39,238 nt of DNA, from the NCBI GenBank assembly GCA_046757025.1, contig JBHHXN010000029.1, positions 1 through 39,238 of the forward strand. Reading direction: 5' to 3'. The first letter of the stretch is position 1. Every line of letters starts with the position of its first letter. This stretch comes from a bacterium. Lineage in GTDB: Bacteria > Zhuqueibacterota > Zhuqueibacteria > Oceanimicrobiales > Oceanimicrobiaceae. Under the pieces are notes generated by a model. That model saw only the letters and a list, made by a program, of their open reading frames with translations. It was not told the DNA's origin and did no database searches. The translations under genes were made by a program, and so were the position numbers. Positions 16,310 through 39,053 of this stretch are shown one piece after another.

Positions 16310-17320
16310 ATGGCAGTGACTATCTACGATGTAGCCAAAAAAGCTGGTGTAGGAATTGGAACCGTTTCACGAGCGATAAACGACAGCCCGCTGATTTCTC
16401 AAAAAACCAAGAAAAAAGTGCTCAAAGCAATAAAAGTGCTCAATTACCAACCGCACACCGTGGCGCAAAGCCTGGCCCGTAAAAAAACCAACACCATCGC
16501 CTGCATCATTCCGTTTTTCACCGGCTATTTTTTTGTTGAATTGCTGCGCGGCATTCAGCGAAAAATCACCGACTATAAATACGATCTCATTTTATACAGC
16601 GTGGATGTCACACACAAAAAAGAAACCTTTCTTCAAAAAACCCTTGAAGAACGGCGCGTGGACGGAGTTTTGTTGATTTCGTTAGAAATATCCCGGGAAT
16701 TTGCTAAAAAATTCACCACCTGCAATTTTCCAATCGTATTAGTTGACAGCCACCATGCCGGCCTGGATTCCATCACCGTGGACAATTTAGAAGGCGCCTA
16801 CATCGCCACTCAACATTTGATCAATTTAGGCTATCAAAAAATCGCCATGATCGATGGCCAGCTTAAAAGTTTTCCAGCGAAATTACGGCTGCAAGGTTAC
16901 AAAAACGCCATGCGAGATCATCACATCAAATTTGATGAAAATTACTTTGTCGCATGTGATTTTGCCAGCGAAGCGGATGGCTTCAATAAAGAAGCCGGCT
17001 ACACCGCCATGCAGCAGCTGCTCAACCTGGGTGAAAAACGTCCCCAAGCGGTTTTCGTATCAAGCGACATTCAAGCCATTGGCGCCATGCAAGCCATCAA
17101 GGAACGCAATTTAATTATACCCGATGATATCGCAGTCGTAGGCTTTGATGATATCGAATTAGCACAATATATCGGTTTGACCACCATCCGGCAGCCCACT
17201 ATGCAAATGGGGGAGCTGGCGGTGGAACGGTTAATGGAAAAAATCTTGCACCGACCTGAAAACAGATTCAAGCGGCAGTTTCACACTGAATTAGTGATTC
17301 GTGAAAGCAGTGGAAATTAG
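16310..17320 (+). CDS. LacI-family transcriptional regulator
   Basis: HTH TIYDVAKKAGVGIGTVSRAIN, hinge YQPHTVAQSL, IPDDIAVVGFDD, LTTIRQP, LVIRES. Confidence 0.97.
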   Translation: MAVTIYDVAKKAGVGIGTVSRAINDSPLISQKTKKKVLKAIKVLNYQPHTVAQSLARKKTNTIACIIPFFTGYFFVELLRGIQRKITDYKYDLILYSVDVTHKKETFLQKTLEERRVDGVLLISLEISREFAKKFTTCNFPIVLVDSHHAGLDSITVDNLEGAYIATQHLINLGYQKIAMIDGQLKSFPAKLRLQGYKNAMRDHHIKFDENYFVACDFASEADGFNKEAGYTAMQQLLNLGEKRPQAVFVSSDIQAIGAMQAIKERNLIIPDDIAVVGFDDIELAQYIGLTTIRQPTMQMGELAVERLMEKILHRPENRFKRQFHTELVIRESSGN

Positions 17321-17411
17321 AATTATTTCACTCGAAATTTGTAATCACCAAACGCAATTCGATGAAGACAGTCTGATGGTAAAAAATACGGTTATCCAAT
17401 TGACTCAGAGA

Positions 17412-17535
17412 ATGTCCTTCTGACGGAGCCCTTCGACGTTGCCAGGGCCGGCCCTGAGCCTCGCGAATGGATAAACACCGCGATTGAAGAATCCCTCTTT
17501 ATACATTCAATCAAGCTCCGTTCTTCGCTCTTCCG
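17412..17535. repeat. Degenerate REP-like cluster
   Basis: CCCTTCGAC..CAGGGCCGGCCCTGAGCCTCGCGAATGG plus GAAGAATC / TTCTTCGC fragments; shares CCCTGAGC with the elements at ~6894 and ~36413. Confidence 0.4.
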
Positions 17536-17645
17536 CCGAGAGGTGAATACTGAGCTAAACCGATTGCTGTAGATTAAATAAGATATTCTGAAGTATCAAT
17601 TGAATTTTAATGTGCTAAAAATAATGCCAAGTTAAACAGGAAGTC

Positions 17646-20519
17646 ATGGTTATGAAAAAACTTTTTGAATTTACAGTCCTCGCGGTGTACCTTAGTTTCG
17701 GACTTTTCACGTCTGCGCTATATTCAGGTACATCAGGTAAAATCGCCGGTAAAGTGGTGGAAGCGGAGTCCGGCGAGCCGTTACCGGGCGCCAATGTCAT
17801 CCTGATGGGCACCACCATGGGCGCCGCCACCGACCTGGGTGGCAAATTCATCATCCTGAACGTTCCGCCCGGCACGTACAATATCAAAGCTTCCATGATC
17901 GGCTACGGTGCCTTGATCTATGAAAACATTCGAGTTTCCATCGATTTGACCACCACGGTCAACTTTGAATTGGGTCAGGAAATATTGGAATTGGGAGACG
18001 AAGTTACTGTGATCGCGGAAAGGCCCATCGTACAAAAAGATTTGACAGCAACCACCGCGGTGGTTGGTGTGGAAGAAATTTCTTCGTTGCCCATCGCGGA
18101 GTTAAGTGAAGCCATCGAGCTGCAGGCAGGCATTATTTCGAGTCAAGGGGCCTTGCACATCCGCGGCGGTCGGGCGGGTGAAATCGGTTACTGGATCGAC
18201 GGCATTCCGGTGACCGATGTTTTTGATGGCGGTACCGTCATCGACTTCAACAAAGAAGCGGTGCAGGAGCTGCAGGTCATCAGCGGCGCCTTCAACGCCG
18301 AATACGGGCAGGCGCAATCCGGCATCATCAACATCGCCACCAAAGAAGGCAGCAATACGTTCGGTGGGTCATTCTCCGTTTATGCCGGCGATCACGCCAG
18401 CCGTCACGACGACATTTTTTTAGACATCGATGGCGTCGATCCCGTGGGGACGCACAATTTCGAAGCCTCGTTTCACGGCCCAATTCTTAAAGACCGCTTT
18501 TTCTATTTTTTAAATGGCCGCTACATCAAACGCAGCGGCTGGATTCACGGTATCCGAAAGTTCAATCCCAACAACATCGCCTTTCGCGTGCAAAATCCGG
18601 AAACGGGTGAGGAAATCATGATGTTCCGCGAGCCCGAAATCGGTCTGGGCGACAACAAGTTCGTGGACATGAACGGCAGCAAAGAGCTGTTTGCCCAGGC
18701 AAAGTTGGTTTACAAATTTTCGCCCAGCATAAAATTGTCCTACACGTACCTGCGAAATGACGACAATTTTATGGAATACAGCAATGACGGGCGATTTCTA
18801 TTTAATCCCGACGGCGAGCTCGAAAAGTTTCGATTGGGGAATACTCACATCGTGAAATTCACCCACGCTGTCAGCAGCCGCACTTTCTATGACGTGGGAT
18901 TGTCCTTTTTCTCCAAAAACTTTGAGCAGCATCTTTACGATGACATCACCTTCAAAACCGACGCCAACGGCAACATCCTCACCACTCCGGAAGGTGGCAG
19001 GGTCATCGAAAATCCCAGCAGATACGTCCACCCTGAGCTGCAAACTCAAGAGCCGTTCAGCTTTAAAACCGGCGGCACCAACAATCAACGGTTTCAGCGG
19101 GAAACCGAAACCCTGTTAGCCAAATTGGCTCTCACCAGTCAGGTCACCAACAATCACCAAATTAAAACCGGCATTGAATTTCGGCGTCACCGAATCTTTT
19201 TTGAAGATATCGAGCTGCGGCCGGTTAACAGAAGTTTCAACCGTTTTGAAGACGACCCGTATGTGGATTTTCAAATATTACCGGTTTCATCGGAGTTCAA
19301 CGATACCTATCTTCACAAACCCACAGAGTTCTCTGCTTACATCCAGGACAAAATGGAATTTGAAAGCATGATCGTGAATTTGGGTGTACGCTTCGATTAT
19401 TTCAATCCCGACGGCGTGGTCTTAAACGATGAAAGCGACCCCAACATTTACAATCCCATTAAACCAGAGAACCGCTTCCGAGACTTGAATGGCAACGGTT
19501 TTCAGGAACCAGGTGAAGCAGACATTACAGTGGAAGAGCGCCGGCAATTCTGGTTCAAAAAGGCCAGCACCAAAACCCGAATCAGCCCGCGTATTGGCAT
19601 CGCTTTTCCGGTAACCGACAGGGGTGTTTTTCATTTTTCGTACGGTTATTTCATGCAAATTCCCAACTTTGAGCGCCTGTACCAAAACCCGGAATTCGAG
19701 CTGGGATTTGGCACCGGCAATCAGGGTACCATCGGCAACGCGGATCTGAATCCTGAATTTACCATCAGCGGTGAAATTGGATTGCAGCAGCAAATCGGCG
19801 AAGACATCGGCATCGACATCACCATTTTCTTTCGAGACATTCGGAATCTGGCCGGTACCAGCTCTGAGGAAATTTTGGTTTTTGGCGAATCGCAAAAATA
19901 CAGCAAGATCGTGAACAGCGATTTCGGTTTTGTACGAGGCGTGGTGCTGTCCCTGAACAAACGATTCAGTCAGGGTTTTTCAGCCAATTTTGATTACACC
20001 TTTCAGATCGCCAAAGCCACCAATTCCGACCCCGAACAGGCACGGAGCGCCCTGGCTGGCGGGACGCAACCGGAAATCCAGCTAACCAACGTCAACTGGG
20101 ATCAAACCCACACCGTCAATGCCAGCCTTTCGTACAGCAAGCCCAATTGGGGCGGCAGCCTGATCTTTCAGTACGGTTCGGGGCAGCCTTTTACCCCGCG
20201 CCAGAGCTCGGATGTCACGGTGATTTTAACCAACAGCGAACGCAAGCCGGATTTTGCAAATGTGGATTTGCGCGGTTATTACGACTTCCTTTTAGGAGGC
20301 GGGAAACGAGTCAACTTGTTCTTCCGCGTATTTAATCTGTTTGACCGATTGAACGAACTCAACGTGTTCGACGATACCGGCCGCGGCACTTTTACCGTGG
20401 ACGAACAACGGGCTGTCGATTCGCCGGATCTGGTGAACACCAAAAGAGAGTTTTTCACCAATCCCACGCATTTTTCGGAACCACGGCGAATTGAAGTGGG
20501 ACTCGGATTTTATTTCTAA
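17646..20519 (+). CDS. TonB-dependent receptor (non-SusC type)
   Basis: Signal peptide, GKIAGKV..GEPLPGANV N-domain, plug HIRGGR.GE..YWIDG...ISGAFNAEYGQAQSGIINI.TKEG, C-terminal PRRIEVGLGFYF. Confidence 0.95.
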   Translation: MVMKKLFEFTVLAVYLSFGLFTSALYSGTSGKIAGKVVEAESGEPLPGANVILMGTTMGAATDLGGKFIILNVPPGTYNIKASMIGYGALIYENIRVSIDLTTTVNFELGQEILELGDEVTVIAERPIVQKDLTATTAVVGVEEISSLPIAELSEAIELQAGIISSQGALHIRGGRAGEIGYWIDGIPVTDVFDGGTVIDFNKEAVQELQVISGAFNAEYGQAQSGIINIATKEGSNTFGGSFSVYAGDHASRHDDIFLDIDGVDPVGTHNFEASFHGPILKDRFFYFLNGRYIKRSGWIHGIRKFNPNNIAFRVQNPETGEEIMMFREPEIGLGDNKFVDMNGSKELFAQAKLVYKFSPSIKLSYTYLRNDDNFMEYSNDGRFLFNPDGELEKFRLGNTHIVKFTHAVSSRTFYDVGLSFFSKNFEQHLYDDITFKTDANGNILTTPEGGRVIENPSRYVHPELQTQEPFSFKTGGTNNQRFQRETETLLAKLALTSQVTNNHQIKTGIEFRRHRIFFEDIELRPVNRSFNRFEDDPYVDFQILPVSSEFNDTYLHKPTEFSAYIQDKMEFESMIVNLGVRFDYFNPDGVVLNDESDPNIYNPIKPENRFRDLNGNGFQEPGEADITVEERRQFWFKKASTKTRISPRIGIAFPVTDRGVFHFSYGYFMQIPNFERLYQNPEFELGFGTGNQGTIGNADLNPEFTISGEIGLQQQIGEDIGIDITIFFRDIRNLAGTSSEEILVFGESQKYSKIVNSDFGFVRGVVLSLNKRFSQGFSANFDYTFQIAKATNSDPEQARSALAGGTQPEIQLTNVNWDQTHTVNASLSYSKPNWGGSLIFQYGSGQPFTPRQSSDVTVILTNSERKPDFANVDLRGYYDFLLGGGKRVNLFFRVFNLFDRLNELNVFDDTGRGTFTVDEQRAVDSPDLVNTKREFFTNPTHFSEPRRIEVGLGFYF

Positions 20520-20563
20520 CAGTGTCTCATTCGAAACGAAATCTAAACAAAGGTCATCTGCAA

Positions 20564-23500
20564 ATGAAAAATCATTTAATAAAATTTTTAACGATCAGCT
20601 GTTTTTCAATCTTTCTAATTCGCTCTGGGGCTGTTGCGCAAACCAGCGGCCCGGAATTTCGCCGCTCTGCCACGCACAACGCCAATCTTGTGAAAACGGG
20701 CTTTGGCAACTGGGGAGTCATTGGTCAGCCTGCACAACGGCCGCGCGGCGCCTGGATTCATGAAAACAACGGCTACATCGGCGATGTCAGTCCCATGGTA
20801 GGCGCAGAGGTCTTTTTAAACAGCTTGCTTTTTCATTCAGTGGTGGTCACGCCGGTGGCCCGGCCTACACAAAATCGCGAAGAATCCGCCTCCGGGCAAT
20901 TCTGGGGATTCGAACCCGACGGCAGATATTTTAACAACAACCAACAATTGGTGGCCATGAGTGACAACCCGGATTCCTGGCCGCCGTTCTGGCCCGACAA
21001 ACTGAACGATCCGGAAGATCCCGGCTGGCGGGGCGCCTGGAACGGATTTTTTGGCAAAAACGTTTTCAATGCCGATCAGGAAAGCTATTTTGTCATGGAC
21101 GATGACAACGATAGAGAATTCAATTTTGCTGAGAACAACAATCTGGCCATAAGTTTTAAGCCCGATTCCACCAACCTCTCCCGAAACGGTTTAGGATTGG
21201 CAGTGAAAGTACGAGGCTTGCAGTGGGCGCAGTTTTTAGCGCAGGACACCATTTTCTGGCTGTATGAGATCATAAACCAGAGCACCAGCCATTACTCGCG
21301 CACGGTTTTCGGCATGCTGGTGGGCACGTTTGTCGGAGCGACCTTCAATCGCGCCAGCGGCAATGAATTTGACGATGACTATTCCTTTTTTGATGTGGAG
21401 CTGGACATGACCTTCACCGCCGACTTTGATGACAACGTCGGCCGCAATCCCGATTGGGTGGGCAGCGACGTGGGAGTGGTGGCGTACGCCTTCTTAGAAA
21501 GCCCGGGCAATGCTTTTGACGGAATCGACAACGACGGCGACGCCGATGAGTCGCTCATCCCCACTGGTCCGTTTTTCACCGAAACGGATTTCGAACCGCG
21601 CCGCATCAACGCCGGCGACAAGGTAGTGATCATCGACGAGGACTTCAACCGACGTGTGGTGACCGTGCCCGCCACCGACACCGTGTTCGTCACACGCGGA
21701 AGCGGGGCCGGCGAAAATAAGATTACCGTCATCCCCGGCATCACCGAGCTGGTGGAGGGCAACACCATAGTGGTGAACGGCCGCCAGACCAGCAATCCCA
21801 ACGCCACCGATGGCATCGACAACGATTTAGACGGTCTCATCGATGAAAACTTTCAACTGCACTTTCGCCAGATTCGACGGGACACACAAGGCAACGTCCT
21901 GATCAATCTCCTGCGTCCGATGAAACACGTGGATTATATCACTGGCGATGGTATGAACAATCCGCTCATCGATGAAAAACGCAACGACGGCATCGACAAC
22001 GACAACGACTGGGACCCGGAATTCGACGACGTGGGCCGCGACGGTATGGCCGACACCAATGATATGGGAGAAAATGACAACGTACCCACCGCTGGCGAGC
22101 CCAACTTCGATCAGACCGACGTCAGCGAATCAGACCAGATTGGCCTCACCAGTTTCGAGTATTTTGTGCCGGCAAACAATATTGACCTCGCCGACGACGA
22201 AGAGCTCTGGGGCCGCATGTCCCCGGGGTTGTTCGATGTGCCGCGCTCCATTCAAAACAACCGTCCGGTCAACGGCGAAGACGGTGATTTTATTTACGGT
22301 TCGGGTTATTTCCCCTTACTGGCCGGACAGACCGAGCGTTTTTCACTGGCGTTGGTTTACGGCGACGGCGGTGGCAGAAATGTCTTAATTGACGATCTAC
22401 TCAAAAACCGAATCACCGTGCAAAAAATCTTTGACGCGGATTACCGTTTTCCAAAACCGCCGGAAAAACCGACTTTAACGGCCGTGCCTGGCGACGGCAA
22501 AGTAACGCTGTACTGGGATCGCAAATCCGAAAGTTCCCTGGACCCGGTGCTGCGCGTGCGGGATTTCGAGGGCTACAAACTCTACAAAGCCACGGATCCG
22601 CGATTCCTCGACGCATTTGAAATCACCGATGCTTTAGGCTCCGTGCAAAAATTCAAGCCCATTCAACAGTATGACCTCGACAACGACATTCAGGGATTCT
22701 TTTTACCCAGCGAGGAGCTCATCGAAGCCACTAGCGGCCTGTCGTTTTTTCTGGGCAGCAACACCGGCCTGCAGCACAGCTTTGTGGATACCGACGTGGA
22801 CAACGGCAGAACCTATTTTTACGCTCTTACCGCCTATGACCGCGGCGATGCCTCTGCCGACATTTTTCCTTCAGAAAATCCCATTCGCATCGATCAGGCG
22901 CCATCGGGAAAATTTTCCACGGACATCAACACCGTCATCGTTGTGCCCAATGCGCCGGTAGCCGGCTTTGAGCCGCCGGAGAACTCAATTCGTCTGGACA
23001 AAATATCCGCCATCGGCACCGGCGAAATCTTTTTTGAAGTCATCGACCAGCAGGTGCAAACCGGCCACCATTACCAGTTAGAATTCTTAGATACCGCGAA
23101 CGACGGCATCGACAACGACGGCGACTGGAACATTGCATTGCACGATGTCGGCAGCGATGGCGTACCGGGCACCGAAGACGCCGATGGCAGCGAAGGCAAC
23201 GGTCGGCCGGATGCGGGCGAGCCCAACGTGGACGCTCTGGACAACGAAGAGCGGCTGGTTCCTTTAACCCATTTTTATTCCATTAAAGATAATACTGGCG
23301 TTATAGAAGATTTTACAGCTAAAGATACACTGTTTGTGAATCTCAAAAACGAGAATTTAATCGCAGAAACCGTTGAAGTCCGCGAAACAGACGGCTCACT
23401 GGTTTCACCAGACAAATACATTTTAGACGCTGAAAACGGAAAAATTCGCGGTATAAATCCGGGTGATCTGGCTGAAAACGATTTCAGTATCACCTATAAA

Positions 23501-24439
23501 TATTATCCCATTTTCAAAAGCCCAAACATTCAGCGCAGTCCGTTTGCGCCGGAAACCAGAGACACCGATATCTTTGACGGCATTCAACTGCTTTTTAACA
23601 ACACCTCTACCCGATCGGGCATCAAACTGGATGACGCTAACTCGGGCTTTAACACCGAGACCTTTTTGCAGTTCACTTTCCAGAGCGATTTTAACACCAT
23701 CGTCGGCGGGAAAACCATCCGTTTGCTGCCGCACCCTGCCGATTATGAAATTCGATTTTTCGACACCATCGTGGATACATCACGGCCGCCAGCGCCGATT
23801 TTGCCAGGAGTGCCGGTGAATTTCGAAATCTGGAACACCACCGAGCAGAAAAAGATAGAGTTTTTATTTACCGATCTGGATCGAAATAATACAATTTCCC
23901 CCACGGACCGATTGCGCTTTTTCGAAGAAGGTGTGGCTGGTGAAAAGGTCCGAACCTGGGACATGTTTTTTCCGGCGCTCAATCAGGGTGAAACGTTCAC
24001 GCCGTTCGCAGCCGGCGTGGTGCTGACGCTCAAAACATTTAAACCCTTTCGCAAAGGCGACACGTTCGAGTTTACCACGGTGGTGGCCAGCGTGAACCCG
24101 GAGTCGGCGCAGCAAAATCAGGAGATGGAGAAAATCAAAGTGGTTCCCAATCCCTACATCGTGGGTACGCCTTTTGAGCTGCCGCCGCCCCCTGGAGTCA
24201 GTGGCCGGGGGGAGCGAAAAATCGACTTCATCCATTTGCCGGACGATGCCGCCGTGCATATTTTCACTTCGAGAGGAGAACACGTGATCACGCTACGCCA
24301 CGATGGCAACATCCATGACGGCGCCGTTTCCTGGAATTTAAAAACCAAAGAAAATTTGAATATCGCCTTCGGCATGTACTTTTACGTAGTGGAATCTCGA
24401 CTCGGTACCAAACGAGGCAAAATAGCTATCATCAAATAA
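20564..24439 (+). CDS. Large secreted protein with DGIDNDxD Ca-binding-type repeats, FN3-like domain and T9SS-CTD-like C-terminus
   Basis: Likely start ATG 20564 (signal peptide); four DGIDNDxD motifs; PGDGKVTLYWD..FEGYKLY..YFYALTAYD; terminal IKVVPNPY..IFT..GE.V..L..WNL....GMYFYVVE..GKIAIIK. Confidence 0.85.
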   Translation: MKNHLIKFLTISCFSIFLIRSGAVAQTSGPEFRRSATHNANLVKTGFGNWGVIGQPAQRPRGAWIHENNGYIGDVSPMVGAEVFLNSLLFHSVVVTPVARPTQNREESASGQFWGFEPDGRYFNNNQQLVAMSDNPDSWPPFWPDKLNDPEDPGWRGAWNGFFGKNVFNADQESYFVMDDDNDREFNFAENNNLAISFKPDSTNLSRNGLGLAVKVRGLQWAQFLAQDTIFWLYEIINQSTSHYSRTVFGMLVGTFVGATFNRASGNEFDDDYSFFDVELDMTFTADFDDNVGRNPDWVGSDVGVVAYAFLESPGNAFDGIDNDGDADESLIPTGPFFTETDFEPRRINAGDKVVIIDEDFNRRVVTVPATDTVFVTRGSGAGENKITVIPGITELVEGNTIVVNGRQTSNPNATDGIDNDLDGLIDENFQLHFRQIRRDTQGNVLINLLRPMKHVDYITGDGMNNPLIDEKRNDGIDNDNDWDPEFDDVGRDGMADTNDMGENDNVPTAGEPNFDQTDVSESDQIGLTSFEYFVPANNIDLADDEELWGRMSPGLFDVPRSIQNNRPVNGEDGDFIYGSGYFPLLAGQTERFSLALVYGDGGGRNVLIDDLLKNRITVQKIFDADYRFPKPPEKPTLTAVPGDGKVTLYWDRKSESSLDPVLRVRDFEGYKLYKATDPRFLDAFEITDALGSVQKFKPIQQYDLDNDIQGFFLPSEELIEATSGLSFFLGSNTGLQHSFVDTDVDNGRTYFYALTAYDRGDASADIFPSENPIRIDQAPSGKFSTDINTVIVVPNAPVAGFEPPENSIRLDKISAIGTGEIFFEVIDQQVQTGHHYQLEFLDTANDGIDNDGDWNIALHDVGSDGVPGTEDADGSEGNGRPDAGEPNVDALDNEERLVPLTHFYSIKDNTGVIEDFTAKDTLFVNLKNENLIAETVEVRETDGSLVSPDKYILDAENGKIRGINPGDLAENDFSITYKYYPIFKSPNIQRSPFAPETRDTDIFDGIQLLFNNTSTRSGIKLDDANSGFNTETFLQFTFQSDFNTIVGGKTIRLLPHPADYEIRFFDTIVDTSRPPAPILPGVPVNFEIWNTTEQKKIEFLFTDLDRNNTISPTDRLRFFEEGVAGEKVRTWDMFFPALNQGETFTPFAAGVVLTLKTFKPFRKGDTFEFTTVVASVNPESAQQNQEMEKIKVVPNPYIVGTPFELPPPPGVSGRGERKIDFIHLPDDAAVHIFTSRGEHVITLRHDGNIHDGAVSWNLKTKENLNIAFGMYFYVVESRLGTKRGKIAIIK

Positions 24440-24468
24440 ACTTTGCTTACCATTCGGAGAAATATCAC

Positions 24469-25503
24469 ATGCGAAATCGCTTAATTCGAATCGTTTTCAA
24501 CCTGGCCTTGGCTGTTGTGGTTTTATCTTCTTTCACGCCAGGGTTCAGTCAGGACAAAGTAGGAACTTCGGCAGCCAACTTTTTAGGCATTGCGGTGGGA
24601 GCGCGCGGGGTGGCTATGGGTGGCGCTTATACCGCGGTGGCTGGCGACGCCACTTCCATTTACTGGAATCCAGGCGCCGTGTCGCGTTCTGAAAAATCTT
24701 ACGCAAATTTTGTGCACACAAACTGGTTTCTGGACACAAAATTCAACTGGGCCGGCATCGTTTTGAATTTCGGAGAAGCCAGTGCCGTAGGCCTCAGCTT
24801 CACGTCACTGGATTTTGGAGACGAACCGGTGACCACGGTTTTTTCCCCCGAAGGCACCGGCGATTTTTTCTCTGCCCAGGATATCGCGGCCGGCATCACT
24901 TACGCCCGAAACCTCACCGACAAATTTTCCATCGGCGGCACCCTGAAATTCATCAATCAAAAGATTTTTAACGTCTCAGCTTCGGCGGTGGCAGTGGATG
25001 TGGGTTTGTTGTTCATCACCCATTTTCATGACATCCAGCTCGGCGTCAGCTTTGCCAATCTCGGCAGCGACATGGAGCTGAGCGGTAAGGACCTGCTTCA
25101 AAAGGTAGATCTGGATCCCACCGCCACCGGTAATAACGAATCCATTGTCGGTCTGCTAAAAACGGAATCCTCTTCCCTGCCGGTGATTTTTCGAGTGGGG
25201 GTTTCCGGCGATTTGATTCGATTTCGCGAAAACAGCCGCCTGATAATTTCAGTGGAAGCCACACAGCCCAACGACAACTCAGGAGTAGTGAATGTCGGCG
25301 CCGAGTTGACCGTCAATAATATGTTTTTTGTGCGCGGCGGTTACAAGTCTTTGTTCCGAGATGAAAGCGAGGAAGGCTTGACCTTTGGCGGGGGTTTGTT
25401 GCTAAATTTCAAAAATCGCCATTCCCTGATTTTCGATTACGCTTTCGCCGATTTTGGCCTGTTGGAAAATGTGCAAATGTTTTCACTGGGCGTGACATTT
25501 TAA
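24469..25503 (+). CDS. PorV/PorQ-family (UPF0164) outer membrane beta-barrel
   Basis: FLGIAVGARGVAMGGAYTAVAGDATSIYWNPG motif, alternating strand pattern, C-terminal FSLGVTF. Confidence 0.9.
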   Translation: MRNRLIRIVFNLALAVVVLSSFTPGFSQDKVGTSAANFLGIAVGARGVAMGGAYTAVAGDATSIYWNPGAVSRSEKSYANFVHTNWFLDTKFNWAGIVLNFGEASAVGLSFTSLDFGDEPVTTVFSPEGTGDFFSAQDIAAGITYARNLTDKFSIGGTLKFINQKIFNVSASAVAVDVGLLFITHFHDIQLGVSFANLGSDMELSGKDLLQKVDLDPTATGNNESIVGLLKTESSSLPVIFRVGVSGDLIRFRENSRLIISVEATQPNDNSGVVNVGAELTVNNMFFVRGGYKSLFRDESEEGLTFGGGLLLNFKNRHSLIFDYAFADFGLLENVQMFSLGVTF

Positions 25504-25547
25504 TTTTACAAAAAAATGTTTTAATACCAATTCAAATTAAACTTAGG

Positions 25548-28486: not shown

Positions 28487-28528
28487 TCCGGCTACCATTT
28501 TGGTAGAGAAAATCATGTTGACGTAATG

Positions 28529-28573
28529 CATTGGGCTGAATGGATGCAGATCTATTCAGCCCAATGTTTTTTT
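28529..28573 (+). terminator. Strong intrinsic terminator inside the locus
   Basis: 17-bp stem CATTGGGCTGAATGGAT-gcag-ATCTATTCAGCCCAATG (one G-U) followed by T7. Confidence 0.85.
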
Positions 28574-30436: not shown

Positions 30437-30690
30437 AAAAAACACTTAAAACATGAATGACTTTGTTTATAAAGTCGAAGAATCTTTCAACTTGAGTCCC
30501 GAAGTGAATTTGGGGAAAGGCGTAACCTGTTGTTTTTTCATCATCCATCGACTCCGCACAGGCGGAAGCGCATTTTTTCACGGTGAGTCTTGAAAAAAAT
30601 TCGGGAATCCATGAAAACTCTTTAACAATCGATCAAAACAGATTTTCAAGGAGTCATTCAAAATTAAATTTAATATCAATCTCTACAAGC

Positions 30691-32778
30691 ATGCAGCGAC
30701 TGACTCAAAAACAGAAAGCCTCCATCAAAAAAAATTATTCAGCCACTTCCGCGGCCGAATTTGCCCGTCGCTTCAAGGTAGATGAGCAGGTGGTAGCTAA
30801 ATACATCCAATCGCTATCGCCGCAGCTCAGTAAAAGCAAGCAAAGACTGTTTAAGCTCATCATGGTTTTATTGCCACTGGTGTTTTTGCTTTTGCTGGAG
30901 CTGGGATTGCGGGCGTTCCACTACGGTCCCAATTTGGATATTTTTGTGACCTTTGAAAACGATCCGAGATACCTGATCACTAATTTGAATGTCGGTAAAA
31001 GATATTTTTTCATCAAGCAGGTTTTGCCCGCCACCTCCTACGACGCGTTTCTGAAACATAAGCCAGAAAACGGTTACCGCATTTTTGTACTGGGCGGTTC
31101 GTCGGCGGCGGGTTACCCGTATTTGCACAACGGCGCTTTTTCCCGCATGCTCAAAACGCGGCTGGAAGACTTTTTCCCTGAGCGCTATTTTGAAGTCATC
31201 AATCTCGCCATGCCGGCGGTAAATTCGTACACCCTGCTCGATTTTGCAGACGAGCTGGTGGCGTACCAGCCCGATGCGTTTTTGATCTACGCCGGCCACA
31301 ACGAATTCTACGGCGCACTGGGTGTGGGCTCTACCGAAGCGCTGGGACAGTTCCGTTCGGTGGTCAACCTCTATCTCAAACTGCAGCATTTTAAAACGTT
31401 TTATCTGCTGCGCTCGTTCATCGGCTGGCTGAAAACACACCTGCCCGCGGGGCAAGGTCCGCCGCTACACAAAGACGCCACGCTCATGGAACGCATGGTT
31501 GGCCGCAGCCAGATCGAATTCGGCAGCACAGAATACAAAAAAGCCCGTGCTATTTTCAAGGCCAATTTGAAAAAGATCTTTGAAATCGCCCAAAAGCACC
31601 ATATCGAAACCGTCGTCAGCGACCTGGTGAGCAACATGCACGATCAGCCGCCGTTCGAATCCATTTACAAAGAGGGCCCGCAGCGGCTGCAATGGGACAA
31701 GCTTTTCCAAGCAGGCAAAAAAAAGCAGGCGCAGGGGCAATGGAGCCAAGCGCTGGCGTTTTACCAGCAGGCGGTGGAGCTGGACGACGGCGTGGCTATA
31801 TTGCACTATGAAATGGCTCGGTGTCTGGAAGCGGCAGGCGAGTTAGAACAGGCAAAAAAACGCTACTATCGCGCAAAAGACCTCGATGCCTTGCGCTTTC
31901 GCGCCAGCGAGGATTTTAACGACGCCATCCACGAAATCGCCGCAGCCATGAACGTACCGGTGATACCCATGAAAGCGTTGTTTGAATCCCACTCACCGAA
32001 CGGATTCATCGGCCGCAACCTGATGCTGGATCACCTGCATCCCAATTTGGAGGGATTTTTCGGTATGGCAAAAGCCTTTTCCCGGATGATGGAAGAAAAC
32101 GGGTTTATTGCGGCAAGCTGGGATTCCTCGAAGGCGAGATCGGATGCCGAGTACTGGCAGAACATCGACGTCACGCCCCTGGACCAGGAAGTGGCCAATT
32201 TGAAAATACAACTTTTGTTGGCCGGCTGGCCGTTTCAAGAAAAATTTGAACCGGACAAAATTCTGAACAAAGCGCCCGAAAACAAAGTTCAGGAGATCGC
32301 CCTTTCCATCATTCAGGATAAAAAAGCCTGGGATGTGGCGCATGTGGAATTGGCCGAATTTTATACTCGGAACGGCGACTTGGAAAAAGCGGCGCAGGAG
32401 TACAAAGCCCTGGTCAAAGGGACTCCGTACAACGTCTCGCCGTATCTCAGATTAGGCTTGAACTATCTCGAACAGCGAAAGTATCCCGAAGCACTAACGA
32501 TTTTCCAGCGCTCGCTCAAAATCGAAGAGAGCTCCATCGCTTACAAATGGATCGGTTCGATTTACGTCAACAAACGCAAACCGGCCACAGGCATTCCCTA
32601 TTTGCAAAAAGCGCTGGAGATAAATCGACGGGATCCGGAAGCGATTTACAACCTCAGCGTGGCTTTTGCCATGCACGGAGATTTTGAGCAGGCCAAATCA
32701 TACTGTCAGGAGCTCTTGCAAAGCAATCCCGATCATCCCGGCGTGAAAAAATTATGGGCTAAATTGAATTCAAATTAA
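30691..32778 (+). CDS. Membrane-anchored SGNH/GDSL-like hydrolase with TPR repeats
   Basis: Probable start ATG 30691; TM helix ending LLELGLR; VLGGSS, YAGHNE, DHLHPN; internal and C-terminal TPRs. Confidence 0.88.
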   Translation: MQRLTQKQKASIKKNYSATSAAEFARRFKVDEQVVAKYIQSLSPQLSKSKQRLFKLIMVLLPLVFLLLLELGLRAFHYGPNLDIFVTFENDPRYLITNLNVGKRYFFIKQVLPATSYDAFLKHKPENGYRIFVLGGSSAAGYPYLHNGAFSRMLKTRLEDFFPERYFEVINLAMPAVNSYTLLDFADELVAYQPDAFLIYAGHNEFYGALGVGSTEALGQFRSVVNLYLKLQHFKTFYLLRSFIGWLKTHLPAGQGPPLHKDATLMERMVGRSQIEFGSTEYKKARAIFKANLKKIFEIAQKHHIETVVSDLVSNMHDQPPFESIYKEGPQRLQWDKLFQAGKKKQAQGQWSQALAFYQQAVELDDGVAILHYEMARCLEAAGELEQAKKRYYRAKDLDALRFRASEDFNDAIHEIAAAMNVPVIPMKALFESHSPNGFIGRNLMLDHLHPNLEGFFGMAKAFSRMMEENGFIAASWDSSKARSDAEYWQNIDVTPLDQEVANLKIQLLLAGWPFQEKFEPDKILNKAPENKVQEIALSIIQDKKAWDVAHVELAEFYTRNGDLEKAAQEYKALVKGTPYNVSPYLRLGLNYLEQRKYPEALTIFQRSLKIEESSIAYKWIGSIYVNKRKPATGIPYLQKALEINRRDPEAIYNLSVAFAMHGDFEQAKSYCQELLQSNPDHPGVKKLWAKLNSN

Positions 32779-34245
32779 ATGCACCAAACAATCACCAGTC
32801 GAATTATAATTTTGTTTTTATGTCTGCTTTGCGGTTTCTCTTGCAAACAACAAGCAGACGAGTCTTTCGTGGCCAGAGTCGGCGGGCAATTGATCACCGT
32901 GGAGGAATTCAAAACCCGCTTTGCCCTGACGCCTTATTTCGGGCAATTTCCAGATGATCCGCAGGTGAAACTGTTGGCGCTGTCCTCTCTCATTGGGGAA
33001 AAACTTCTGTCACAAAAAGCCCAAGAGGGGCAGCTCCATAGCACTGACAAATTTCAGGCTTTTTCCAGGCAGATGGAAAAAGAAGCGCTTATCGAAGGCG
33101 TGCTCCACGATCTGTTTTCAGGAATTGAAATTTCAAACGAAGAGTTAAAAACAGCACACAAAAACTCCCAGCGCGCTTTGCAGGTTGAAGAGTGGGTTTT
33201 CGCCACCGCAGAACAAGCCCGCACCGCCAGAGTAAATTTGCTCAACCAGAAAAATCAGTCAAACTCAGATTTGCCAGAAAGCCGGATTTACCGCGTGAAA
33301 TGGGGAGACAGCGACTACGAAATCGAAGACATCCTGTGGAAATTGAAAACTGGTGAAATTTCCGAGCTGGTGCCGTTCCAAAATCATTTTTATCTTTTTC
33401 GAATTGCCGGCGACTTTCAGAATGAACAGATTCCCCCATTTCAGCAGGCGCGGCCGCAAATTCAAAGGATGCTTGAAAAACGAAAAAAAGAGCAAATTTA
33501 CCGGTACTTTTTTAAAAAATTGATGGTGGGCAAAAAAACGCACGTCCCTCCTGAAATCCTGAATTACATCGCCCAGCAGATGGAGCTGGCTCTGGACCTT
33601 CATGCTGCATCACTGGAAGATTCGCTGAAATTGAATCCCAAACTGCTGTCTGAAATGGATTATTTGCGAGTCGCACAAAAGCTCGATCAGCGTTTGCAGG
33701 AGAACTTCGTTACTTTTGACGACGGTTCGGTCTGGACGATTGGCGACTTTCTGCGCAACTTGCGCTACGGACCTTACCCACTGAACTATTCCAGCCGGGG
33801 CACGTTTAGGGCCAGCTTGCACAAAATGGCGGTGATGATGATGGAGCAGGAATACGTGGCCAAAGAAGGCTTGCGCAGAGGCTTGCAAAAATCTTTGGCG
33901 GTTAAACGGAAAGCGCAGATCTGGAAAGACAGCTTTTTAGCCGATCAGATGCGGCTGCAAATTATTCGCTCAAATCCAAAAAATGAACAACATCGGTCGA
34001 GCGCTTCTAACCAGGCCATGACTGCAGGCGGCATGGGGCTGGAAAGGTTAGACCGGTTTCTAACAGACGCACTACAGTCCAGACCTGTGCAGGTGAATCG
34101 GTCGTTGCTGGATTCGCTGCAGGTTAAAAGTTTGCAGGTGGTGGCCTTCAAGCGACATTTCCCCGGTCGGAAGGCGGCGCCGGATCTACTGCCCCTGGAC
34201 CAACTTCAAAGCTATTTTAGCGAATTTTATAAATTGGTAAAGTGA
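32779..34245 (+). CDS. PpiC/SurA-like (degenerate rotamase) lipoprotein
   Basis: Lipobox GFSC; VARVGGQLITVEEF; LKTGEISELV..FYLFRI; TAAATG junction with the upstream gene. Confidence 0.7.
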   Translation: MHQTITSRIIILFLCLLCGFSCKQQADESFVARVGGQLITVEEFKTRFALTPYFGQFPDDPQVKLLALSSLIGEKLLSQKAQEGQLHSTDKFQAFSRQMEKEALIEGVLHDLFSGIEISNEELKTAHKNSQRALQVEEWVFATAEQARTARVNLLNQKNQSNSDLPESRIYRVKWGDSDYEIEDILWKLKTGEISELVPFQNHFYLFRIAGDFQNEQIPPFQQARPQIQRMLEKRKKEQIYRYFFKKLMVGKKTHVPPEILNYIAQQMELALDLHAASLEDSLKLNPKLLSEMDYLRVAQKLDQRLQENFVTFDDGSVWTIGDFLRNLRYGPYPLNYSSRGTFRASLHKMAVMMMEQEYVAKEGLRRGLQKSLAVKRKAQIWKDSFLADQMRLQIIRSNPKNEQHRSSASNQAMTAGGMGLERLDRFLTDALQSRPVQVNRSLLDSLQVKSLQVVAFKRHFPGRKAAPDLLPLDQLQSYFSEFYKLVK

Positions 34246-34526: not shown

Positions 34527-36341
34527 ATGACATTTTTTGACTACAGTATCGTGATCTTGTATATCGCAGCCATGGTGTTCGTGGGACTCATCATGCAAAA
34601 ACGGGCATCCAAGGGCATCGACTCCTATTTCCTCGGCGGTCGAACTTTGCCCTGGTGGGTTCTGGGCGCTTCGGGCATGGCGTCCAATCTCGACGTCAGC
34701 GGTACCATGATCAACACCGCGTTTATCTTCGCCATGGGCGCCAGCGGCTTTTTTGTGGAAATTCGCGGCGGCGTCACGCTGATCATGGCCTTCCTGATGA
34801 TCTTCCAGGGTAAATGGAATCGCCGCGCCCAGGTGATGACCCAGGCGGAATGGATGCGTTTTCGATTTGGCTCAGGAACAGAAGGCAACGCAGCCCGGCT
34901 CATTGCGGTGCTTTCTAACATATTGACAACCATTGCCATGGTAACCTACTTTGCAGTTGGTTCAGGAAAATTTATCGGCGAATTTTTAGGTATTCCCGCG
35001 TTTGCAGGTCTGTCATCGCAATTCTGGGCCGCCACGCTCATGATCGTTCTGGCAATGATCTACACCGTGGCCAGCGGTCTTTACGGCGTGGTCTGGACCG
35101 ACGTTTTTCAAGGTCTGCTGATTTTTGGCACCATTATTTATATCTGCGTGATGGCGTTTACCAAAATCGTGCTGCCCGAATCTTTCCTGGTGTCGGTGCC
35201 CCTGCGAGAAGGCGGCTTTCAAGCCATCCAAACCACCAAGGAGGCCTGGACCAGCATCCTGCCCTCCTGGAACCTCCATTTCGACGCCGCGTCAACGTAT
35301 TCTATCTACAATATGTTTGGCATCGCCATATTGTTTTATTTGATCAAGGTCACCATCGAAGGCAGCGGCGGCACCAGTCAGTATATGATCCAGCGTTTTT
35401 TTGCTTCGCGCAGCGACCGCGAATCCGGATTGCTTTCGCTGTTCTGGACCGTTTTGCTGGCCTTTCGCTGGCCTTTTATCATGGCCATCGCCATGATGGG
35501 CGTGTACCTCGGCACCACCAACGGCGTCATCGACGATCCGGAAAAAGTGCTGCCGGTAGTGATCAACGAAATGGTGCCCATCGGCATCAAAGGCTTGCTG
35601 GTGGCAGGCTTGATGGCCGCGGCCATGTCCACGTTCGACTCAACCGTAAACGCCGGCGCCGCCTACTGGGTGAAAGATGTCTATCAGGCATACATCAATC
35701 CCAAAGCCAGCTCAAAGCAGCTCATGCGGCACAGCCGTTGGTCGTCCATTCTCATTGTGCTCATCGGTCTGCTATTCACTTTGATTATCAAAAATATTAA
35801 CGAGATTTGGGGCTGGATTACGATGAGCATGGGCGCGGGTCTGATCATTCCCATTTTAGCCAGATGGTACTGGTGGCGCATGAATGGCTACGGTTTTGCA
35901 GCCGGCACCTTGGCGGGGATGCTCGCAGCCATCATTCAAAGAGTCGTTATTCCTGATGTGCCAGAATATCTTTCTTTCACCATCGCCAGCGTTTCATCGT
36001 TAGTGGCCATGATCGTGGGCACCTACGCTTCAAGGCCTACCGACGATAGTGTGCTGCTTGAATTTTACAAAAAGACCCGGCCATTTGGATTCTGGGGACC
36101 GGTTCGCAATAAATTATCAGTAAACGTCAATGAGCAGATCGATCAGGAAAACCGTCGAGACAAGCTTTCCACACTGTTGGCCGTGCCCTGGCAGGTGGTC
36201 TTATTCCTGACCGGTATGGCTTTGATCATGAAAAGATGGGATCAATTTGGCTGGCTGTTGCTCGTCTTGACAGCTTTATCCGCCGGCCTTTATTTCAAAT
36301 GGTTCCGACATCTTTCAACCGAAGTGAAGATGGATGAGTAG
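34527..36341 (+). CDS. Sodium:solute symporter (probable sugar importer)
   Basis: YFLGGRTLPWW..G.S, SGLYGVVWTD..QG, GL.AAAMSTFDS, many TM helices; GGAGG SD. Confidence 0.95.
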   Translation: MTFFDYSIVILYIAAMVFVGLIMQKRASKGIDSYFLGGRTLPWWVLGASGMASNLDVSGTMINTAFIFAMGASGFFVEIRGGVTLIMAFLMIFQGKWNRRAQVMTQAEWMRFRFGSGTEGNAARLIAVLSNILTTIAMVTYFAVGSGKFIGEFLGIPAFAGLSSQFWAATLMIVLAMIYTVASGLYGVVWTDVFQGLLIFGTIIYICVMAFTKIVLPESFLVSVPLREGGFQAIQTTKEAWTSILPSWNLHFDAASTYSIYNMFGIAILFYLIKVTIEGSGGTSQYMIQRFFASRSDRESGLLSLFWTVLLAFRWPFIMAIAMMGVYLGTTNGVIDDPEKVLPVVINEMVPIGIKGLLVAGLMAAAMSTFDSTVNAGAAYWVKDVYQAYINPKASSKQLMRHSRWSSILIVLIGLLFTLIIKNINEIWGWITMSMGAGLIIPILARWYWWRMNGYGFAAGTLAGMLAAIIQRVVIPDVPEYLSFTIASVSSLVAMIVGTYASRPTDDSVLLEFYKKTRPFGFWGPVRNKLSVNVNEQIDQENRRDKLSTLLAVPWQVVLFLTGMALIMKRWDQFGWLLLVLTALSAGLYFKWFRHLSTEVKMDE

Positions 36342-36374
36342 GTTTAGATTCTCCTAAAATGATGAAGGCTTTTT

Positions 36375-36534
36375 GTTGAGGCTGTCTAAAAAACCAAAAT
36401 TTCTGTTACTCGCCCTGAGCCTGTACTGGCGAAAACGGAGAACGAGAATCGATAGCTTTTAGATTATTCTGGATTCCTGCTTTCGCAGGAATGACAATTC
36501 AATGCTTTGTTTCGACATTTTGGACAGCCCCAAC
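36375..36534. mobile_element. MITE-like element with terminal inverted repeats and an internal REP hairpin
   Basis: GTTGAGGCTGTCTAAAA ... TTTTGGACAGCCCCAAC (15/17 inverted match); internal CTGGATTCCTGCTTTCGCAGGAATGAC (36469-36495). Confidence 0.6.
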
Positions 36535-36644
36535 TACCGAAGCTCAAATTATGAAGGAGAATTATAAGAAAACGATTTAACAGTTTGAGCCATTCATGCA
36601 ATTCACTTGAATTACAACAAAATCAAATGCAGCCTATATTGAAT

Positions 36645-39053
36645 ATGAAAACATTTAAACCCTTCAGTTTTTTAGTTTTGATTTGTCTGTCGCTTGCGTG
36701 CAAATGGAGTCCGCAGCCGCGCCTTCGCGATCTCATTCAACCCATTGTACTCCATGCCGGCAAAGCAGACACACTGCTGGTAACGGATTTATTCTACTCC
36801 GACGACTATTTTTTGGATTTCCAAGCGAATCCGAATTTGGATGTGCGCTACCAGCTTAAAACGCGCAGGTTGATTCTGAAGGCCGACTCTTCCTTCGAGG
36901 GCGGCACCCTGCTGGAATTTACATTGAAGGGCGAGAAATATCACATTCTAATTTCTTCGCGAAAAAAGCAAAAATACACCTTTCGATTTCGTCCGCCTTC
37001 GCCGCCACAGAGACGCATGAACCTCATGGGCACCTTTAACGACTGGCACCGCAACAGCCTGCCCATGCACGATGCGGACGGCGATGGCGAGTATGAAATT
37101 ACTCTGGAATTAGACCCGGGGCAGTATCTTTATCAATTCGTCATCGACGAGCACGAAATCTGGGATCCCGAGAATCCGCAAAAAGTGGACAACGGATTTG
37201 GGAGTTTTAATTCGGTGGTTTCCGTTCCCGAGCGTCATACTGACAAAGCTTTTCTGCACGTGACCGGCTTCCGCGCCACCGCTGCCACCACAACCCTGAA
37301 TTTCATCTACGAAAAAGCGAATCAGCGCGCGCCTCTAAAGGCCAACCAGGTCATCGTTTTGCTCGACAATCTTGCGCTGCAAGACGAGCAAATCCAGATC
37401 GTCGGCAACGAGATAAAAATTCATCTCAACGCCAAAGATTCCGTAGGTGAAAAAACGCTGCGATTGCTGGTCACTCAAAATGGGCAATCCACCAATCTGC
37501 AGACCGTGCGGCTACAAAACGGCATCCCTGCTGGCGCGCAAAAAGGTCGCTTTATCTGGCACGACGCCATCATCTACGCCGTGATGCCTGACCGATTTTT
37601 CGACGGCGACACCAGCAACAGCCATCCCGTGCAGCACGACTCCTTAGACCGAAAAGTTAATTACCAGGGCGGCGACTTGCAGGGCATCCTCGACAAATTG
37701 GAAAGCGGTTATTTCGATTCACTGGGCGTGAACACCTTGTGGATTTACCCGATCAATCAAAACACTGACGAGGCGTTTAAAGAATGGCCGCCGCCGCACC
37801 GCTACTATTCGGCCTACCACGGCTACTGGCCCACACACCATGAGAAAGTGGAAGAGCGTTTTGGTGACCTGCAACTTCTGCAAACCCTGGTGGCGAAAGC
37901 CCATGAGCACGGCATCAAAATTCTGCTGGATTTTATCGCCAACCACGTCCACCGTGACCACCCGTTTTATCAGGAGCATCCGGACTGGTTCGGCGTGTTA
38001 GAGCTGCCGGACGGCCGCAAAAATATTCGCTTCTGGGATGAATACCGACTGACCACCTGGTTCGAGCCGTTCCTGCCGTCCTTCGATTACCTCGGCTCTG
38101 ATGCAGCACTGGAAGCCATGACCGACAACGCTGTATGGTGGCTGCAACAAACCGGCGCCGACGGCTTCCGTCACGATGCGGTCAAACACGTACACAATCG
38201 TTTCTGGCGGCTTTTGACTCAAAAAATAAAACGTGAAATTGAAATTCCGCAAAATCGATCTCTCTTTCAAATTGGCGAAACTTTTGGCAGTTATGAATTG
38301 ATCCGCTCGTATGTCAACAACGGACAGCTCAATGCCCAATTCAATTTCAATCTTTACGACACCGCACTTTATGTGTTTCTAAATTCCGAAGCGGATTTTT
38401 CCATTCTGGCCAAAGAGCTGGAGAAAGCTTTTCGCGTATTCGGTTTCAACCATCTGATGGGCAACATCATGGACAGCCACGACAAGGTGCGCTACATGGC
38501 CTACGCCGACGGCGACATCCGTCTGAACAGCAGCGACGCCCAGGAAATGGGCTGGCGCAATCCACCGCGCGTGTCCTTTGCCGCAAGCTATGATAAAGTC
38601 AAACTCTACCTAGCGTACTTGCTGACCATTCCAGGCGTACCCGCCATTTATTATGGCGACGAAATCGGCATGACCGGCGCCACGGATCCCGACAACCGCC
38701 GCATGATGCGCTTTGACGATGAACTCAACAATCTTGAAAAACAGATGCTAAAAGAGACTCGCAAAATAATCCAGCTGCGCAAACAGCATTCCGCTCTGCG
38801 GCACGGTGATTTTCAATCACTCTTTACAAATGAAAACTGTTTTGTTTATTTGCGATCAGACATGCATGAACGCGTTCTTGTAGTTCTGAACAAAAGCGCT
38901 CGTCCGCAAAAAATCGATATCAATTTACCCGAATTCTACCACATAGAAAACGCGTTGGACACGGTAACTGGTGAAGAATATGACATTCAACAAAACATCC
39001 TGTCGTTGAATTTACCGGCCATCGGTTGGAAAGTACTAAAAATGAAGCTTTAA
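36645..39053 (+). CDS. GH13 alpha-amylase-family lipoprotein with CBM48-like domain
   Basis: Probable start ATG 36645, lipobox SLAC; MGTFNDW..PGQYLYQFVID..DPENP (CBM48-like); DFIANH, GFRHDAVKH, GETF and DSHD catalytic regions intact. Confidence 0.95.
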   Translation: MKTFKPFSFLVLICLSLACKWSPQPRLRDLIQPIVLHAGKADTLLVTDLFYSDDYFLDFQANPNLDVRYQLKTRRLILKADSSFEGGTLLEFTLKGEKYHILISSRKKQKYTFRFRPPSPPQRRMNLMGTFNDWHRNSLPMHDADGDGEYEITLELDPGQYLYQFVIDEHEIWDPENPQKVDNGFGSFNSVVSVPERHTDKAFLHVTGFRATAATTTLNFIYEKANQRAPLKANQVIVLLDNLALQDEQIQIVGNEIKIHLNAKDSVGEKTLRLLVTQNGQSTNLQTVRLQNGIPAGAQKGRFIWHDAIIYAVMPDRFFDGDTSNSHPVQHDSLDRKVNYQGGDLQGILDKLESGYFDSLGVNTLWIYPINQNTDEAFKEWPPPHRYYSAYHGYWPTHHEKVEERFGDLQLLQTLVAKAHEHGIKILLDFIANHVHRDHPFYQEHPDWFGVLELPDGRKNIRFWDEYRLTTWFEPFLPSFDYLGSDAALEAMTDNAVWWLQQTGADGFRHDAVKHVHNRFWRLLTQKIKREIEIPQNRSLFQIGETFGSYELIRSYVNNGQLNAQFNFNLYDTALYVFLNSEADFSILAKELEKAFRVFGFNHLMGNIMDSHDKVRYMAYADGDIRLNSSDAQEMGWRNPPRVSFAASYDKVKLYLAYLLTIPGVPAIYYGDEIGMTGATDPDNRRMMRFDDELNNLEKQMLKETRKIIQLRKQHSALRHGDFQSLFTNENCFVYLRSDMHERVLVVLNKSARPQKIDINLPEFYHIENALDTVTGEEYDIQQNILSLNLPAIGWKVLKMKL

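Follow-up and report, generated by a model that had tools for sequence, protein, structure and literature searches.

A conserved TonB-dependent receptor, large secreted protein and PorV-family barrel at the core of a predicted alpha-glucan utilisation locus in a Zhuqueibacterota bacterium

We report on a 39,238-nucleotide stretch of DNA (the window; GenBank contig JBHHXN010000029.1, which is contig C29 of genome G000, assembly GCA_046757025.1, 94.8% complete) from a bacterium of the phylum Zhuqueibacterota. Ten genes of the window, which we are highly confident form an alpha-glucan utilisation cluster, are arranged around a core of three. These encode a TonB-dependent receptor (TBDR; 17646-20519, + strand, with CarboxypepD_reg, plug and PF25183-type barrel domains), a secreted non-lipoprotein of an unnamed family that we term Large (20522-24439, + strand), and a PorV/PorQ-family barrel (24469-25503, + strand) that is likely dedicated to Large. 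The three very likely make up one functional unit, and this conserved unit is smaller than the ten-gene locus. It is a real, widespread and apparently undescribed variant of the theme in which a TBDR is combined with a surface partner. The receptor is not a SusC protein, because its score on the SusC model TIGR04056 (64.6 bits) lies far below the cut-off of 368.25.

We examined 46 named loci and 60 fetched regions, which yielded 102 distinct Large homologues of more than 950 aa, with gene adjacency taken from a tblastn recount. The TBDR gene adjoins the Large gene in 95/96 judgeable loci and the barrel gene does so in 89/94, with both neighbors in place in 85/89, an arrangement that chance would hardly produce; one clade has the order TBDR-barrel-Large. 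The conserved block of TBDR, large protein and PorV suggested in a first-pass annotation of the window is thus borne out by the synteny survey. Large homologues are present in 142/151 genomes of the phylum, compared with 26/61 for SusD_RagB, and in 47/101 genomes of the phylum of genome G151. In a protein search, 3,194 of 7,996 scored candidates match Large, and nearly all of the 120 listed are unnamed or annotated as hypothetical; viral contigs contained no Large relative. The module is retained across a number of phyla akin to Bacteroidota. Named loci with the triplet include KSB1, Calditrichaceae, Melioribacteraceae, Rhodothermales and Neomarinimicrobiota, and we checked by sequence a cassette on the Rhodothermus marinus plasmid pRMAR01 (RMAR_RS14120/14115/14110). 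This plasmid cassette (L135, NC_013502.1:8638-21117) also holds a peptidoglycan-recognition protein and has type III-A CRISPR-Cas genes on one side and type I-U ones on the other. The genome of the window itself has related cassettes on contigs C169, C60, C16 and C121, and others cut by contig ends on C272 and C28. In the C169 cassette two genes, one for a nucleotidyltransferase and one for a small partner, are placed between Large and its barrel gene (L120:2920-3775), and loci L096, L024, L045 and L085 are tandem arrays of two or three cassettes, one L096 copy being without its own barrel gene.

Trees built from 72 triplets agree to a considerable degree. The TBDR and Large trees share 40 supported splits (of 54 and 56), and the Large and barrel trees share 32 (of 56 and 35). 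Patristic correlations among the three trees are 0.93, 0.81 and 0.83, with r = 0.93 for TBDR and Large. Such agreement reports on inheritance as a block, not on contact.

Large comprises 1305 aa when read from a GTG start at 20522; a 1291-aa database form would begin at an ATG 14 codons further on. Its sequence contains a signal peptide without a lipobox cysteine, acidic DxDxDG-type repeats, which we take to be calcium-loop-like, and inserts and aromatic residues that are specific to each clade. Many acidic residues are invariant in the family alignment. The sole Pfam match is a weak one to CHU_C (PF13585) at aa 1234-1294, with 16.5 bits against a cut-off of 27 (E 0.0097), and no TIGR04183/PF18962 tail was matched at E 0.01. 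On profiles built from the fetched loci, the tail scores 26 on the type A profile vs 152 on the Large-type profile. We modeled the protein as two overlapping parts, aa 40-830 (mean predicted local distance difference test score, pLDDT, 87.7) and aa 640-1305 (pLDDT 92.1), and ran the structure comparisons on these two models, each taken whole with its share of the middle domains (~aa 330-540 and 850-1190). Both models are almost all beta. The predicted N-terminal part resembles the beta-supersandwich domains found in enzymes of glycoside hydrolase (GH) families GH15 and GH94 (257 residues aligned, Z 19.3, rmsd 3.1), a fold that is common to aldose 1-epimerases as well as to GH15/GH94 N-domains (Z 12-19). 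A beta-supersandwich is usually a non-catalytic support domain, and no invariant or near-invariant histidine was found in that of Large across 87 sequences. Large as a GH15 glucoamylase was considered and rejected, as the model of the N-terminal part has no helical barrel. The predicted C-terminal part has its best structural match in PorZ (5m11; Z 11.2, rmsd 2.2, 88 aligned), followed by PorU (6za2; Z 9.0, rmsd 3.2, 89 aligned; model residues 556-666). The C-terminal domains (CTDs) of PorZ and PorU are not cleaved on secretion, according to the accessible text of PMC11285876. Other searches were less informative: the Large profile found nothing among sequences of solved structures (best E 0.44), Foldseek gave no match to the N-terminal model at E 0.001, and it returned generic multi-Ig chains only for the C-terminal model. 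Taken together, Large is predicted to consist of a beta-supersandwich with acidic inserts, followed by Fn3/Ig domains and by a divergent CTD of the PorZ/PorU kind.

The barrel encoded next to Large scores 202 bits on the PorV/PorQ family model NF033709 (cut-off 90), and its profile finds solved PorV at E 2e-21. It stays below the equivalog cut-offs of PorV (65 bits vs 250), PorQ (101 bits vs 220) and PorV2. The cassette barrels group together (support 0.97), separately from the top-scoring PorV-family gene of the genome, which is located on contig C11 and is presumably the general carrier. A PorP-type pairing was rejected: the barrel matches NF033709 and solved PorV, and TIGR03519 (PorP/SprF) gives one weak match in this genome, on another contig. 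We classed the 189 CTD tails of the genome with the profiles built from the fetched loci, and found a PorV-family gene directly downstream of 6/6 judgeable Large-type tails, 8/22 divergent tails and 0/144 judgeable strong type A tails. Two further proteins of the locus, one with CBM20-like modules (CBM, carbohydrate-binding module) and one with FG-GAP repeats, carry CTDs and signal peptides read from the sequence. The CBM20 protein ends in a strong type A tail (126 bits on our own profile; 41.2 bits on TIGR04183, cut-off 23), and the tail of the FG-GAP protein reaches 27.6 bits on the same TIGR04183 model. In Bacteroidota, the general PorV takes care of type A cargo, and linked private barrels retain type B cargo at the surface, as described in the available part of PMC12618676; the part of PMC9143113 at hand likewise places type B cargo on a genetically linked PorP-like barrel. 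Because tail class predicts an adjacent barrel (6/6 vs 0/144), and in light of this precedent, the locus barrel probably serves Large only. The first-pass annotation had the locus PorV hold all CTD proteins of the locus, which we could not sustain, as the CBM20 and FG-GAP tails are of the class that lacks downstream barrels. There is thus a good chance that Large is retained on its cognate barrel, and the gene linkage points to an uncleaved, barrel-bound tail. Elsewhere in the same genome (L133, G000:C84:5915-13284), the gene after that of a DUF11/vWA protein whose tail is divergent encodes a 1074-aa protein with PorV-family barrel, CARDB and OmpA domains, which resembles a PorP+PorE fusion.

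We next compared the surroundings of the cassettes. The neighbor scan covered 265/276 cluster representatives, eleven from L048 being left out, and none of the 265 belongs to a SusD family. The clades pair with different substrates, namely starch, mannan, beta-glucan, galactan, pectin/xylan and peptidoglycan. In the starch clade, to which the window belongs, the neighbors are CBM20-CTD proteins, GH13, GH77, GH57 and GH31. The clade with reversed gene order is found with GH26, GH130, GH5 and a GH2 mannosidase, other clades with GH94/GH144/GH16, with GH53/GH2 or with pectin and xylan enzymes, and the Rhodothermales cassettes with amidases and NamZ nearby. Each clade has its own CBM-bearing CTD proteins. 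Mapped on each tree, the substrate labels require 5 changes vs at least 18 in 300 shuffles (56 labeled loci; the second copy in L053, a distant cassette, left out), a test that overstates the association since kin share labels. In counts that do not include labels of the third Pfam batch, a starch-related gene is present in 21/22 starch-clade loci that have 8 kb of sequence downstream, and 34/47 loci of the non-starch clades with room hold a glycan- or peptidoglycan-related gene. A starch-specific architecture is therefore rejected, since other clades sit with other substrates.

The secretion genes of these lineages are consistent with a type IX secretion system (T9SS)-like route, with one major gap. 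SprA is found in 61/61 genomes of the phylum, including that of the window, which also encodes PorU, TonB and about 180 CTD proteins. The sprA gene named in the first-pass annotation is thus present; porKLMN, named alongside it, were not found. GldM is found in 0/61 of these genomes, while the same model is positive in 24/101 genomes of the phylum of G151. For the genome of the window, searches for GldL and GldN returned nothing and that for GldK only matches below cut-off; these searches had no positive control and leave room for very divergent forms. In the phylum of G151, none of the 24 genomes with GldM is among the 47 with Large. Export apparently follows a T9SS-like route without the known motor. 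In one run of genes in the genome of the window (L129, G000:C21:4643-21206), two CTD proteins and a long PorV-family protein are encoded together with ExbB and two ExbD genes; from its gene content, this run is a candidate link of ExbBD motors to CTD export or anchoring.

We propose the following working model for the locus. A maltose-type inducer would lift LacI from its operator, and the CBM20 protein, secreted by the general PorV/PorU route, would bind starch or glycogen at the surface. The polymer would be cut by a GH13 enzyme; the GH13 lipoprotein of the locus may lie on either side of the membrane. Large would be exported through SprA, with its uncleaved tail bound to the barrel encoded next door, and would present its supersandwich to the TBDR through the Ig/Fn3 arm, passing on maltodextrins as SusD does for SusC. 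TonB-ExbBD would then drive import, and the symporter would take the sugar across the inner membrane. We give a slight preference to this explanation as a whole, an alpha-glucan cluster built on a three-gene module in which SprA-exported, barrel-bound Large feeds maltodextrins to the TBDR. Likewise, we lean somewhat toward Large being a ligand-binding partner in contact with the receptor.

Several observations weigh against this model. The supersandwich fold does not by itself show sugar binding by Large. Adjacency and tree agreement are also expected from plain operon linkage, so that support for both contacts is indirect, and for 10 of the 54 TBDR splits with support the Large tree has a supported split that contradicts it. 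In the version on contig C114, the tail protein has just 181 aa and could not be such a lid. We picked the loci by likeness to the Large protein of the window, which favors glycan loci; even so, 13/47 non-starch loci with room have no labeled glycan gene, and in the genome of the window the C60 cassette sits beside peptidases and those on C16 and C169 have no carbohydrate-active enzyme (CAZyme) nearby. The carbohydrate association beyond this locus that the first-pass annotation anticipated thus does exist and varies by clade, and it is neither starch-specific nor restricted to glycans. The model also gives no account of how Large leaves the translocon or of what powers this step, as GldL, GldM and GldN were not found and cargo release from SprA depends on the motor in Flavobacterium (PMC10994853, accessible part).

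Large could be exported and anchored and yet be a scaffold, an adhesin or an assembly partner, with the CBM20 protein alone capturing starch and the TBDR working without a lid. The prevalence of Ig/Fn3 domains and of acidic repeats, presumably calcium-loop-like, would suit such a role, no ligand site was identified in Large, and the clades bring their own CBM-bearing CTD proteins. We nevertheless consider it unlikely, since it is Large and not the CBM protein that is the invariant neighbor of the TBDR (95/96) and that follows it most closely in the trees (r 0.93), and since Large varies between clades in inserts and aromatic residues, as a part conferring specificity would. We consider it very improbable that Large is an enzyme fixed next to the receptor, be it a novel glycosidase, a lyase or a mutarotase-like protein. 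GH15/GH94 N-domains and aldose 1-epimerases do have the supersandwich fold (Z 12-19) and many acidic residues are invariant, but the models have no catalytic helical or TIM barrel, no histidine of the kind expected from epimerase chemistry is invariant or nearly so in the supersandwich of the 87 sequences, and a single family sits beside chemically unrelated substrates.

The barrel might instead transport and anchor every CTD protein encoded in the locus, that is, Large, the CBM20 protein and the FG-GAP protein. The CBM20 gene lies directly 3' of the barrel gene in 29/30 starch-clade loci with room, an arrangement that leaves room for sharing, and in Flavobacterium one shuttle can serve several cargoes (PMC12618676, in the part available). 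Against this, both proteins have type A tails like those of ~158 other strong type A proteins in the genome, none of the 144 judgeable ones having a downstream barrel; the general PorV handles all type A tails in the same source, and PorU is present here. Moreover, the other neighbor of the barrel changes by clade whereas Large is constant, and we regard a shared barrel as rather unlikely. Finally, the TBDR could mainly help the export or release of Large, coupling TonB energy to a translocon without a motor. Myxococcus Oar is a TBDR that is required for protein secretion, and the presence of SprA in 61/61 genomes that have GldM in 0/61, together with the disjoint sets of GldM-positive and Large-positive genomes (24 and 47) in the phylum of G151, would fit such a function. 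However, such a TBDR is missing beside the genome's ~180 CTD proteins, the TBDR clades follow the neighboring substrates, and the lack of overlap between GldM and Large follows taxonomy and so amounts to one or a few events, which makes this export role quite improbable.

The preferred model, with Large as partner of the receptor, draws on the remaining genes of the locus for regulation, surface binding, cleavage and uptake. The ten co-directional genes and their families were correctly described in the first-pass annotation, with open reading frames, all on the + strand, at the same coordinates and with supporting Pfam, TIGRFAM and NF profile matches; its assignment to alpha-glucans is supported by the starch-related genes of the window and of the starch clade, and SusD is indeed missing (0/10 proteins match the family; the genome has four SusD_RagB matches, all on contigs other than C29). 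Regulator, binder, glycosidase and transporter for one glycan are thus co-located, as in polysaccharide utilisation loci (PULs). The cluster starts with a LacI-family regulator (lacI, 16310-17320; PF00356 and PF13377), whose orthologue is upstream in 12/25 starch-clade loci with room. Downstream of the core, a 931-aa protein with an LTD domain, four related CBM20-like modules and the type A CTD is encoded at 25691-28486. Pfam recognizes one of its modules, and profile comparison adds the other three (probability 97, 90 and 88); 2/6 pairwise profile comparisons between modules are weak, and blastp detected no internal repeats within the protein. From its sequence, this protein is likely a surface starch binder with a role similar to that of SusE/F.

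The genes that follow are the FG-GAP/ASPIC protein with a type A CTD (28622-30436), an SGNH/GDSL and TPR protein with one hydrophobic segment (30583-32778), and a SurA/PpiC-like lipoprotein with a lipobox-like GFSC motif (32779-34245), a possible folding helper. All three are peripheral to the module: FG-GAP orthologues occur in 3/22 starch-clade loci with room, SGNH-TPR genes, a recurrent accessory, in 5/22 starch-clade and 7/47 other loci, and PpiC-like genes in 4/22 and 21/47 (L091-L105, G000:C28). The position of SurA/PpiC-like genes after non-starch cassettes suggests a dedicated folding helper. A sodium:solute symporter (SSF; 34527-36341), likely for inner-membrane sugar uptake, has orthologues of >55% identity in 9/22 starch-clade loci vs 1/47 others. 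The last gene (36585-39053, likely start 36645) codes for a GH13 + CBM48 lipoprotein with a lipobox-like SLAC motif and sequence motifs that we take to be the GH13 conserved regions; its orthologues share a contig with Large, lying 13-16 kb downstream of it, in G013 and G050, two close relatives in which the full ten-gene layout recurs.

In a scan of the region for regulatory elements, promoter and terminator totals equal chance, and we considered only the single best sites. The best promoter is a putative sigma-70-like site upstream of lacI (16195-16223, + strand; 11/12 consensus matches). Just 3' of its -10 box lies a 14-bp palindrome (16235-16248), likely the LacI operator. With up to 2 mismatches, the motif is found within 300 nt upstream of 20/24 cassette-linked lacI genes and in 0/480 shuffles; at up to 1 mismatch it is a single site in the genome, and in most loci no copy turned up in the stretch that separates lacI from the TBDR gene. 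LacI would thus be expected to bind the palindrome. The longest stem in the scan, a hairpin of 18 pairs with a T run that resembles an intrinsic terminator, follows the CBM20 gene (28528-28567, + strand) and may close the five-gene block that is the most conserved one in the starch clade. A tRNA-Met(CAT) gene (15831-15906, - strand) is located directly 5' of the locus promoter and is divergent from it.

The window contains a separate susC/susD pair (1792-6232), which no CAZyme gene adjoins. The susC gene (1792-4647) scores 429.8 bits on TIGR04056 and passes the cut-off of 368.25. Its partner (4805-6232) has no Pfam match and is a divergent SusD by its Atlas features (0.99 to SusD-family clusters) and by structure (TM 0.65, PF07980-named row), with homologues in 7/101 genomes of the phylum. 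The 'canonical susCD' of the earlier annotation therefore holds for susC, whereas the susD partner is divergent and missed by Pfam; its statement that both architectures coexist in the window stands. Between this pair and the locus, we noted by eye from the list of open reading frames a gene pair resembling an SbcC/SbcD-type ATPase and metallophosphoesterase (7403-10566, - strand), and a Receiver-PAS-GGDEF-EAL-like protein with a small receiver protein (12369-14841, - strand).

Our literature searches, which covered few subscription papers and no supplements, found no published description of the module. The terms TonB, SusD and type IX never occur in the KSB1 genome paper (PMC9012183), and the accessible parts of PMC11205867 and PMC4793230 contain nothing on the module. 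In the available text, the starch operon of Melioribacter is described as SusCDE (PMC3534657), and Caldithrix abyssi grows on starch (PMC5317091). If the module does the job of SusCD, glycan and peptide uptake would have been overlooked in a number of lineages that abound in sediments, vents and hot springs. Predictions of PULs are built on susCD pairs; the triplet would be a new marker, with the clade predicting the substrate. T9SS secretion would be directly linked to TonB-dependent import, and a third cargo-barrel pairing would stand beside type A/PorV and type B/PorP, raising the question of what energizes SprA where GldLM are not found. More broadly, we find the evidence evenly balanced on whether KSB1, Calditrichota, Ignavibacteria, Rhodothermia and Marinimicrobia possess a second, so far undescribed class of nutrient-capture machine in the outer membrane, in which each TBDR is capped by a supersandwich protein tethered through its own PorV-family barrel in place of a lipid and exported by SprA without GldLM, as an ancestral-lineage counterpart of SusCD. 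Cultured Rhodothermus marinus carries the module and is hence amenable to testing.

We compared the module to other systems in which a surface protein is linked to a receptor or barrel. In the R. marinus xylan locus Rmar_1067-1081, Table 1 of PMC6987092 lists LacI, CTD enzymes, a TBDR, a Por-CTD hypothetical, a hypothetical and a CTD protein, beside a separate susCD. This gene order is the same as in the window and suggests homology, and the cassette checked on pRMAR01 is from the same strain; in the accessible text the authors left Rmar_1071/1072 hypothetical and credited uptake to SusCD. In the type B pairs SprB-SprF and PG1035-PorP, a cargo gene is likewise genetically coupled to its own barrel, from the same superfamily, which is thought to shuttle and hold the uncleaved cargo (PMC9143113, PMC12618676, both in part). 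Here, in contrast, the barrel is of the PorV/PorQ family, the Large tail falls below the CHU_C cut-off, and the pair goes with a TBDR and nutrient loci rather than with adhesion or gliding. An uncleaved CTD on a PorV/PorQ-family barrel is also the arrangement in PorZ-PorQ and PorU-PorV, and PorZ and PorU are the best structural matches of the Large tail; unlike theirs, our barrel is under the equivalog cut-offs, multi-copy and substrate-linked, and no role in lipopolysaccharide attachment is indicated. The B12 uptake system BtuB-BtuG of Bacteroides offers a non-SusD surface partner in a stable TBDR complex (PMC10404256, available part), and BtuG is a lipoprotein without T9SS tail or anchor barrel. 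A functional parallel may be drawn with SusC/SusD of the Bacteroides Sus system and other PULs, where a TBDR is tightly linked to the gene of a surface partner, the pair is repeated per substrate, and the locus also provides a regulator, binding proteins, glycosidases and an inner-membrane transporter. The parts differ: SusD is a helical TPR lipoprotein and the partner here an all-beta protein of 1,300 aa that is no lipoprotein and has a tail of the T9SS type, the TBDR is under the SusC cut-off, the binders are CTD proteins rather than the lipoproteins of Sus, and a PorV-family barrel is added as third core gene.

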